Assembly (NCBI RefSeq): GCF_045037415.1
Contig: NZ_CP173438.1
Strand: one strand, 5' to 3'
Source of the DNA: Escherichia coli
GTDB taxonomy: Bacteria > Pseudomonadota > Gammaproteobacteria > Enterobacterales > Enterobacteriaceae
Length of the DNA stretch: 64,000 nucleotides
This document shows, piece after piece, positions 12,590 to 13,147 of this stretch (within the stretch, counting starts at the first letter, position 1; the number at the start of each line of letters is the position of its first letter). The notes under the pieces were generated by a model. It saw only the letters and a program-made list of their open reading frames with translations, ran no database searches and was not told the DNA's origin. The position numbers and the translations under genes are program-made.

Positions 12590-13147
12590 GCAATCAATGC
12601 CCGGTTACGTGCGCGTACACCGGGCAGTTTCTCCGTCATACAATCATTCTTTTTTTGTCTAAATGTTGTTAATATTTAACAACTCTCGATAGTTATTTTC
12701 CCATTATTGAATCCCGTAATAAAATAAAGAAGATAATGGTTTTGTGTCTTGAATATATATTTATTGATTTAATTAATATTAAATTTTAGCAATAAATAAT
12801 GGTAAGGTCATTATAATTTTTTAGTGTGCTTTATAAGCAATTCATTTTTGTTGATTATGATAGTTTGTTTTTTGTTGATAATTCGCATGTTTTTTTGTTG
12901 GAAAGTGGTGAAAGTATTTTGCCGATGTATTAATTAATAAAATCTACATAAAGTCTTTAAGTATTACTAAATTGAGTTTTTTTATAGATAAGACCAACAT
13001 AAAGACACACCAGAGAATACTTGTTTACATTCTATAATTATATTGGAATGTATATGTTCAATGGCTAACTATAAGTATTGGACATAACATATATTAATTT
13101 TATGTCAGGTACTTATATTATGACTTTTAATGATTTAAGGACAAATA

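Follow-up and report, generated by a model that had tools for sequence, protein, structure and literature searches.

The AT-rich sixA-yfcV leader of ExPEC-type Escherichia coli: a probable H-NS-silenced control region of the Yfc fimbrial operon

Positions 12590-13147 of the window (the whole 64,000-nucleotide stretch of DNA that was analysed) correspond to the intergenic region between sixA and yfcV, 558 bp long, in an ExPEC/B2-type E. coli. This region probably controls transcription of the Yfc fimbrial operon and is most likely kept off by H-NS-type silencing. The feature is real but ordinary. It has already been described for K-12, and CFT073 is covered by genome-wide data. Only the depth of allelic divergence between leaders, recurrent IS1 insertions and a TATAAT at 13033-13038 in ST131-type leaders are mildly new.

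Locus and composition of the leader

The bounds of the interval are exact: it begins immediately after the stop codon of sixA and ends immediately before the start codon of yfcV at 13148. When positions 12000-13800 of the window were compared with complete E. coli genomes, the match extended through sixA in 5425 of 5426, with 100% identity to several human ExPEC strains. The leader is 100% identical to the leader of ST131 strains. In GN04133, one of the identical strains, the RefSeq annotation gives the gene order fadI-fadJ-sixA, a 558-bp gap, the fimbrial genes and smrB. The fimbrial block of GN04133 consists of a fimbrial protein, an usher, a chaperone, three fimbrial proteins and a StfH/YfcO-family adhesin. 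By synteny, the locus, which is sited between sixA and smrB, is yfcV-U-S-R-Q-P-O of K-12. A complete chaperone-usher operon lies directly downstream of the leader and all seven of its genes have Pfam matches, in operon order Fimbrial, Usher/PapC_N/PapC_C, PapD_N/C, three more Fimbrial and DUF2544/YfcO. A major subunit, usher, chaperone, minor subunits and adhesin are thus found at sixA-smrB, as in a Yfc-type core-associated chaperone-usher system. yfcV is a widely used PCR marker of uropathogenic E. coli. The ExPEC-type version of the cassette is carried by about 1,230 of the 5,426 complete genomes and is presumably the target of 'yfcV-positive' PCR typing. The main features of the locus are as follows.

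12104-12589, + strand: sixA, phosphohistidine phosphatase, the upstream core gene and left boundary (RefSeq annotation of the identical strain; Pfam His_Phos_1)
12598-12626, + strand: GC-rich, terminator-like hairpin just 3' of the sixA stop, outside the AT-rich leader (RNA fold -18.8 kcal/mol, z -2.92)
12640-13147, + strand: AT-rich core of the yfc regulatory region, 23% GC; putative H-NS/StpA binding platform, judged by composition and homologous leaders
13148-13714, + strand: yfcV, major fimbrial subunit, ExPEC-type allele, the 'yfcV' UPEC marker gene
13795-19549, + strand: rest of the operon after yfcV (RefSeq annotation, Pfam), made up of the next four entries
13795-16443, + strand: usher yfcU
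16463-17215, + strand: chaperone yfcS
17232-17723, 17720-18199 and 18196-18723, + strand: minor subunits
18725-19549, + strand: adhesin yfcO

The original prediction, made from the letters alone, described a leader of about 560 bp that is very AT-rich and lies 5' of a fimbrial operon. This was confirmed, with a length of 558 bp, a GC content of 26.2% compared to 50.6% for the whole window, and an operon that is complete by Pfam. Only 0.12% of all 558-bp windows are equally low in GC, and the global minimum among them, 24.9%, starts at 12628. The AT run quoted in that prediction sits at 12771, in the most AT-rich core (16-19% GC, 12700-12850). The first 40 bp or so of the intergenic region are not AT-rich. 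Because they hold the terminator-like hairpin of sixA, the AT-rich core proper is better taken as about 12640-13147.

Other physical traits agree with the low GC. TpA steps make up 13.1% of the leader and 4.6% of the window (2.8-fold), and A/T-tracts occur at 2.5 per 100 bp compared to 1.0 in the window (2.4-fold density). Curvature prediction had been proposed as a check and, when run, ranked the mean for the leader among the highest 3.7% of windows. The curvature peak, at 12981, exceeds the 99th percentile; these figures are approximate. The leader has the composition of an H-NS target, with hundreds of base pairs that are far AT-richer than the rest and rich in TpA steps and A-tracts. The high-affinity H-NS motif TCGATAAATT was not enriched in the leader beyond what composition predicts (1 match with at most 2 mismatches, 0.6 expected).

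H-NS silencing and candidate promoters

The original prediction also held that the promoter is silenced by nucleoid proteins such as H-NS and may contain a phase-variation switch. Silencing is supported by published data on the homologous leaders of K-12 and CFT073, and the switch is not supported, as described in the next section. In K-12, the sixA/yfcV spacer is an H-NS-bound promoter island, according to the ChIP data of Kahramanoglou and Oshima tabulated in PMC3661553, where it is listed as island 2453647_489 (Panyukov & Ozoline 2013). Genomic SELEX found an RpoD-holoenzyme site, TTGAAA-17-TATAGT, in the same spacer and flagged it HNS (Shimada et al. 2014, PMC3946193). The Rho inhibitor bicyclomycin induces K-12 yfcV along with other cryptic fimbrial genes. 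The yfc operon has been classed as core-associated and functional but cryptic (Wurpel 2013, PMC3559732). The same paper, citing Korea 2010, describes cryptic E. coli chaperone-usher fimbriae as H-NS-repressed.

The CFT073 leader is 95.8% identical to the leader in the window. In CFT073 ChIP-seq, c2884/yfcV is among the H-NS- and StpA-bound genes in Data set S1 (Hustmyer et al. 2022, PMC9765446), a call that is made per gene (c2884) and not for intergenic DNA. Neither neighbour of c2884, sixA nor the usher, is on the bound-gene list. The call is weak: the occupancy given for c2884 is modest, at 0.14 in the wild type and 0.069 in the hns stpA double mutant, a drop of about 2-fold, and the double mutant still carries a bound flag for StpA (PMC9765446). 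For these reasons, part of the CFT073 ChIP signal may be background. Overproduction of TosR, a PapB-family AT-binding regulator and proposed H-NS antagonist, raises CFT073 yfcV by 5.2 log2 (PMC5956150). The case for H-NS is drawn mostly from the K-12 leader, whose proximal 350 bp have 64% identity to the leader in the window and whose distal 200 bp essentially cannot be aligned with it. For the exact ST131-type sequence, we infer both H-NS/StpA silencing and the location of the promoter from the sequence and its relatives.

In the preferred reading, a short sixA terminator hairpin is followed by about 500 bp of 23%-GC, TpA-rich, moderately curved DNA that holds the putative yfcV promoter or promoters. 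The most likely mechanism is xenogeneic-type silencing, in which H-NS and StpA would polymerise over the AT-rich DNA and continue into the 5' part of yfcV. Such a filament would block productive sigma-70 initiation, and this block would leave the operon cryptic under laboratory conditions. Expression would then need counter-silencing, for example by host cues or by TosR and other AT-binding regulators of the PapB family. The segments of the leader that may bear on promoter function are listed here.

12750-12830, + strand: most AT-rich (16-24% GC), predicted-curved segment; putative positional counterpart of the K-12 SELEX promoter
12773-12800, + strand: candidate distal promoter hexamers TTAATA-16-AATAAT
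12812-12817, + strand: candidate distal perfect TATAAT
12817-12822, + strand: T6 tract, T6-T8 in other strains
12797-13147, + strand: promoter-proximal segment clearly homologous to the K-12 leader (64% identity, E 1e-28)
12928-12949, + strand: conserved block TATTAATTAATAAAATCTACAT, common to K-12 and partly to the third allele class by alignment; possible regulator or promoter site
13006-13020, + strand: conserved block CACACCAGAGAATAC, in all three allele classes
13033-13038, + strand: perfect -10-like TATAAT, only in ST131-type leaders, with TATGAT in the other B2 lineages sampled
13056-13066, + strand: conserved block GTTCAATGGCT, in all three allele classes
13129-13147, + strand: nearly invariant stretch in all classes, ending with the Shine-Dalgarno AAGGA (13137-13141) 6 nt before the yfcV ATG

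A further block, 13113-13120, is common to all leader classes. A sigma-70 scan of the leader returned 8 consensus-like sites compared to 4.5 +/- 2.3 in shuffled sequences. The matches were weak, at only 9 of 12 positions and at most about 1.5 sd above the shuffles, and for this reason the promoter could not be placed. Consensus scans of the leader for IHF, CRP, Lrp and Fis gave 0 matches each. PapB-like 9-bp-phased A/T triplets numbered 49 in the leader compared to 35 +/- 9 in shuffles, which is not significant.

The TATAAT at 13033-13038 was found in the window and in MS1657, and TATGAT was found in 6 other B2-lineage leaders sampled. In ST131-type leaders, a G-to-A change at 13036 converts the TATGAT located 110 bp upstream of yfcV to TATAAT. 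Combined with T-tract lengths that differ by lineage, this change could give rise to a proximal promoter that is in part exempt from H-NS silencing, although we regard this as a long shot. If true, ST131 would have a lineage-specific level of Yfc fimbriae expression.

Phase variation, passive origin and post-transcriptional control

Phase variability is common among fimbrial operons, and a switch in this leader could take the form of an invertible promoter element like fimS, a Dam/Lrp methylation switch of the Pap kind or a slipped-strand tract. The geometry of one perfect 9-bp inverted repeat pair (12771-12779 and 13091-13099, 311-bp spacer) is indeed fimS-like. The suggested search for inverted repeats bounding an invertible element was run, however, and the repeats were at chance level: 3 perfect 9-mer inverted pairs were observed where shuffles average 2.4, one or more pairs of this kind turn up in 80% of dinucleotide shuffles, and shuffles typically reach the same maximum length of perfect inverted repeat, 10 nt. 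None of 1879 matching genomes gave 80% or greater coverage of a construct with the segment between the 12771 and 13091 repeats flipped, and none of 5333 did so for a flip of the whole core. The leader was collinear in 1205 of the 1232 genomes that carry it, and all three exceptions examined were IS1 events. The inverted-repeat candidates I12 and I5 were rejected by the chance model and the flipped-construct searches. No FimB/FimE-like recombinase adjoins the operon. The leader has sixA and yfcV as its neighbours, and the sole recombinase in the window is a 391-aa phage-type integrase beside tRNA-Arg, about 9 kb away. A Pap-type switch is opposed by the lack of any GATC within the 558 bp, or anywhere between 12419 and 13291, and of any Lrp consensus match in the leader. 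No papI- or papB-like gene was found beside the operon either; the upstream sixA is co-directional and the leader has ORFs of at most 37 aa. Three T-tracts do vary by 1-2 nt among strains, as the T6 at 12817-12822 does, with similar 1-nt polymorphisms at 12868-12873 and 12977-12983. The longest homopolymer in the window leader is T7, and the T6-T8 range among eight B2 leaders is short for slipped-strand switching, so these differences look like ordinary indel variation. With chance-level repeats, no flipped genomes, no GATC, no adjacent invertase or regulator and short homopolymers, a phase switch of any of these kinds is most improbable.

The AT-richness could instead be a passive relic of horizontal acquisition or of relaxed intergenic drift that lacks regulatory meaning, with H-NS binding only incidental. 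The whole yfc cassette, from the sixA stop codon to smrB (12590-19600), has 44-74% nucleotide identity to K-12, compared to 93-97% for the flanking fadJ, sixA, smrB and prmB. This is consistent with ancient exchange, and the cassette is an ancient, deeply diverged allele. The distal 200 bp or so of the leader are almost unconserved between alleles (identity to K-12 is barely above shuffled controls), and within the B2 class variation is as high in the leader as in yfcV, with 8.8% and 6.9% variable columns, respectively. The imported block itself is not low in GC, however, since the coding DNA of the cassette has a normal GC content of 50-56%. At least three leader classes exist in E. coli, with lengths of 558, about 660 and 680 bp and mutual identities of about 51-56%. 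Despite this divergence, length (558-680 bp) and low GC (26-32%) were kept in all three. Because all classes are AT-rich at about 50% identity while the coding DNA is of normal GC, low GC is specific to the leader and maintained. Low GC that was kept while the sequence drifted points to selection on composition, as for a silencing platform, and speaks against a foreign-DNA relic; composition rather than sequence is what is conserved across the classes. In addition, the proximal 350 bp have retained conserved blocks and the ribosome-binding region, and the K-12 leader has documented binding of RNAP and H-NS (PMC3661553, PMC3946193). A passive origin is therefore unlikely.

It is also quite improbable that the region serves chiefly as a long, structured 5' UTR, or that it encodes a small RNA or peptide acting on yfcV post-transcriptionally. 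Immediately 5' to the ribosome-binding site sits an imperfect 34-nt inverted repeat (13057-13130), and a distal promoter like that of K-12 would imply a 5' UTR of about 330-380 nt. Even so, the fold of 13040-13160 was no better than shuffles (z -0.75), and Rfam gave no match at E<=1 on either strand of 12300-13900. Small ORFs inside the leader were rejected as genes since all are at most 37 aa and of low complexity, and an 84-aa minus-strand ORF (13127-13381) only overlaps the 3' edge of the leader from inside yfcV.

Transcriptional control with H-NS-type silencing remains the preferred reading. Two further observations concern variation in the leader itself. The hairpin right after the sixA stop differs, and is non-homologous, in each of the three leader classes; these class-specific hairpins indicate that allelic divergence begins at the first intergenic base and that each allele has its own sixA terminator. 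IS1 has also inserted into the leader at about leader position 104 (window ~12693; AREA_494 and AVS0575) and at about 411 (window ~13000; strain 1380). In the latter strain, yfcV and the 5' end of the usher gene have undergone an IS1-IS1 inversion, and AVS0575 has an IS1-associated deletion of the same segment. Strains 1380 and AVS0575 share an IS1 at one usher breakpoint, where a 2316-bp usher remnant is left.

Wider context and comparison with known systems

A leader with the silenced-promoter architecture of K-12 and without a switch means that one should look for counter-silencers and host cues and not for ON/OFF subpopulations. The deep divergence of the leader is a caution that promoter mapping in K-12 is not simply transferable to ExPEC strains. 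Beyond correct annotation, the feature is of little importance.

Several observations were made in other parts of the window. Positions 1-4151 are the terminal part of an integrated P2-like element at tRNA-Arg (4077-4151). This element has a tyrosine integrase on the minus strand (2741-3916) and an ogr/Delta zinc-finger gene (1-228). Its cargo of low GC (29-33%) comprises sce7726 (908-1789) and sce7725 (1811-2761). The sce7726-family protein matches PADLOC model PDLC02989 'cll' (E 1.2e-18), and this suggests that the two genes are a phage-defence cargo pair. The gene yfdF, which sits between mlaA and fadL in K-12, is absent here (window 6208-6270). Another long AT-rich leader, about 920 bp, is the alaA-lrhA intergenic region (60312-61230), with 35% GC at 60501-61000, upstream of lrhA, which encodes a LysR-family transcriptional regulator, one that acts on motility and type 1 fimbriae.

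Among the closest described systems is the promoter island of K-12 MG1655, which has the same sixA/yfcV position, operon architecture, long AT-rich spacer and an identical ribosome-binding region. The homology between the two leaders covers the proximal 350 bp or so (64% identity, E 1e-28), whereas the distal 200 bp or so and the sixA terminator are not alignable. The leader in the window is also shorter (558 bp compared to 680 bp) and lower in GC (26% compared to 32%). In K-12, 383 bp separate the SELEX promoter from the downstream ATG, and the TTGAAA-17-TATAGT hexamers of this promoter are not conserved in the window leader. The downstream cassettes are 52-74% identical, with an usher that is a pseudogene in K-12 and intact here.

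The leader upstream of c2884 in CFT073 and Nissle 1917 (ST73) belongs to the same allele class and precedes a YfcV protein of the same class. It differs from the window leader in length (566 bp compared to 558 bp), by a 5-bp indel at 12694 and by T-tracts that are off by 1-2 nt, and the CFT073 leader has TATGAT in place of the TATAAT at 13033-13038.

The yadN promoter, one of the H-NS-silenced promoters of other cryptic core chaperone-usher operons, is similar in that an AT-rich region lies upstream of a core-associated fimbrial operon that is not phase-variable. Experiments in CFT073 and EC958 have shown that H-NS represses yad and that host cues relieve this repression (PMC13245861); these data are an analogy for yfc and not evidence on the yfc locus. 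With fimS of type 1 fimbriae, the leader shares a promoter-bearing AT-rich region before the gene for the major subunit, and the likeness of the 9-bp repeat pair is coincidental. Unlike fimS, the yfc leader has repeats at the level of chance, has no adjacent FimB/FimE and was never found inverted in about 1,230 genomes.
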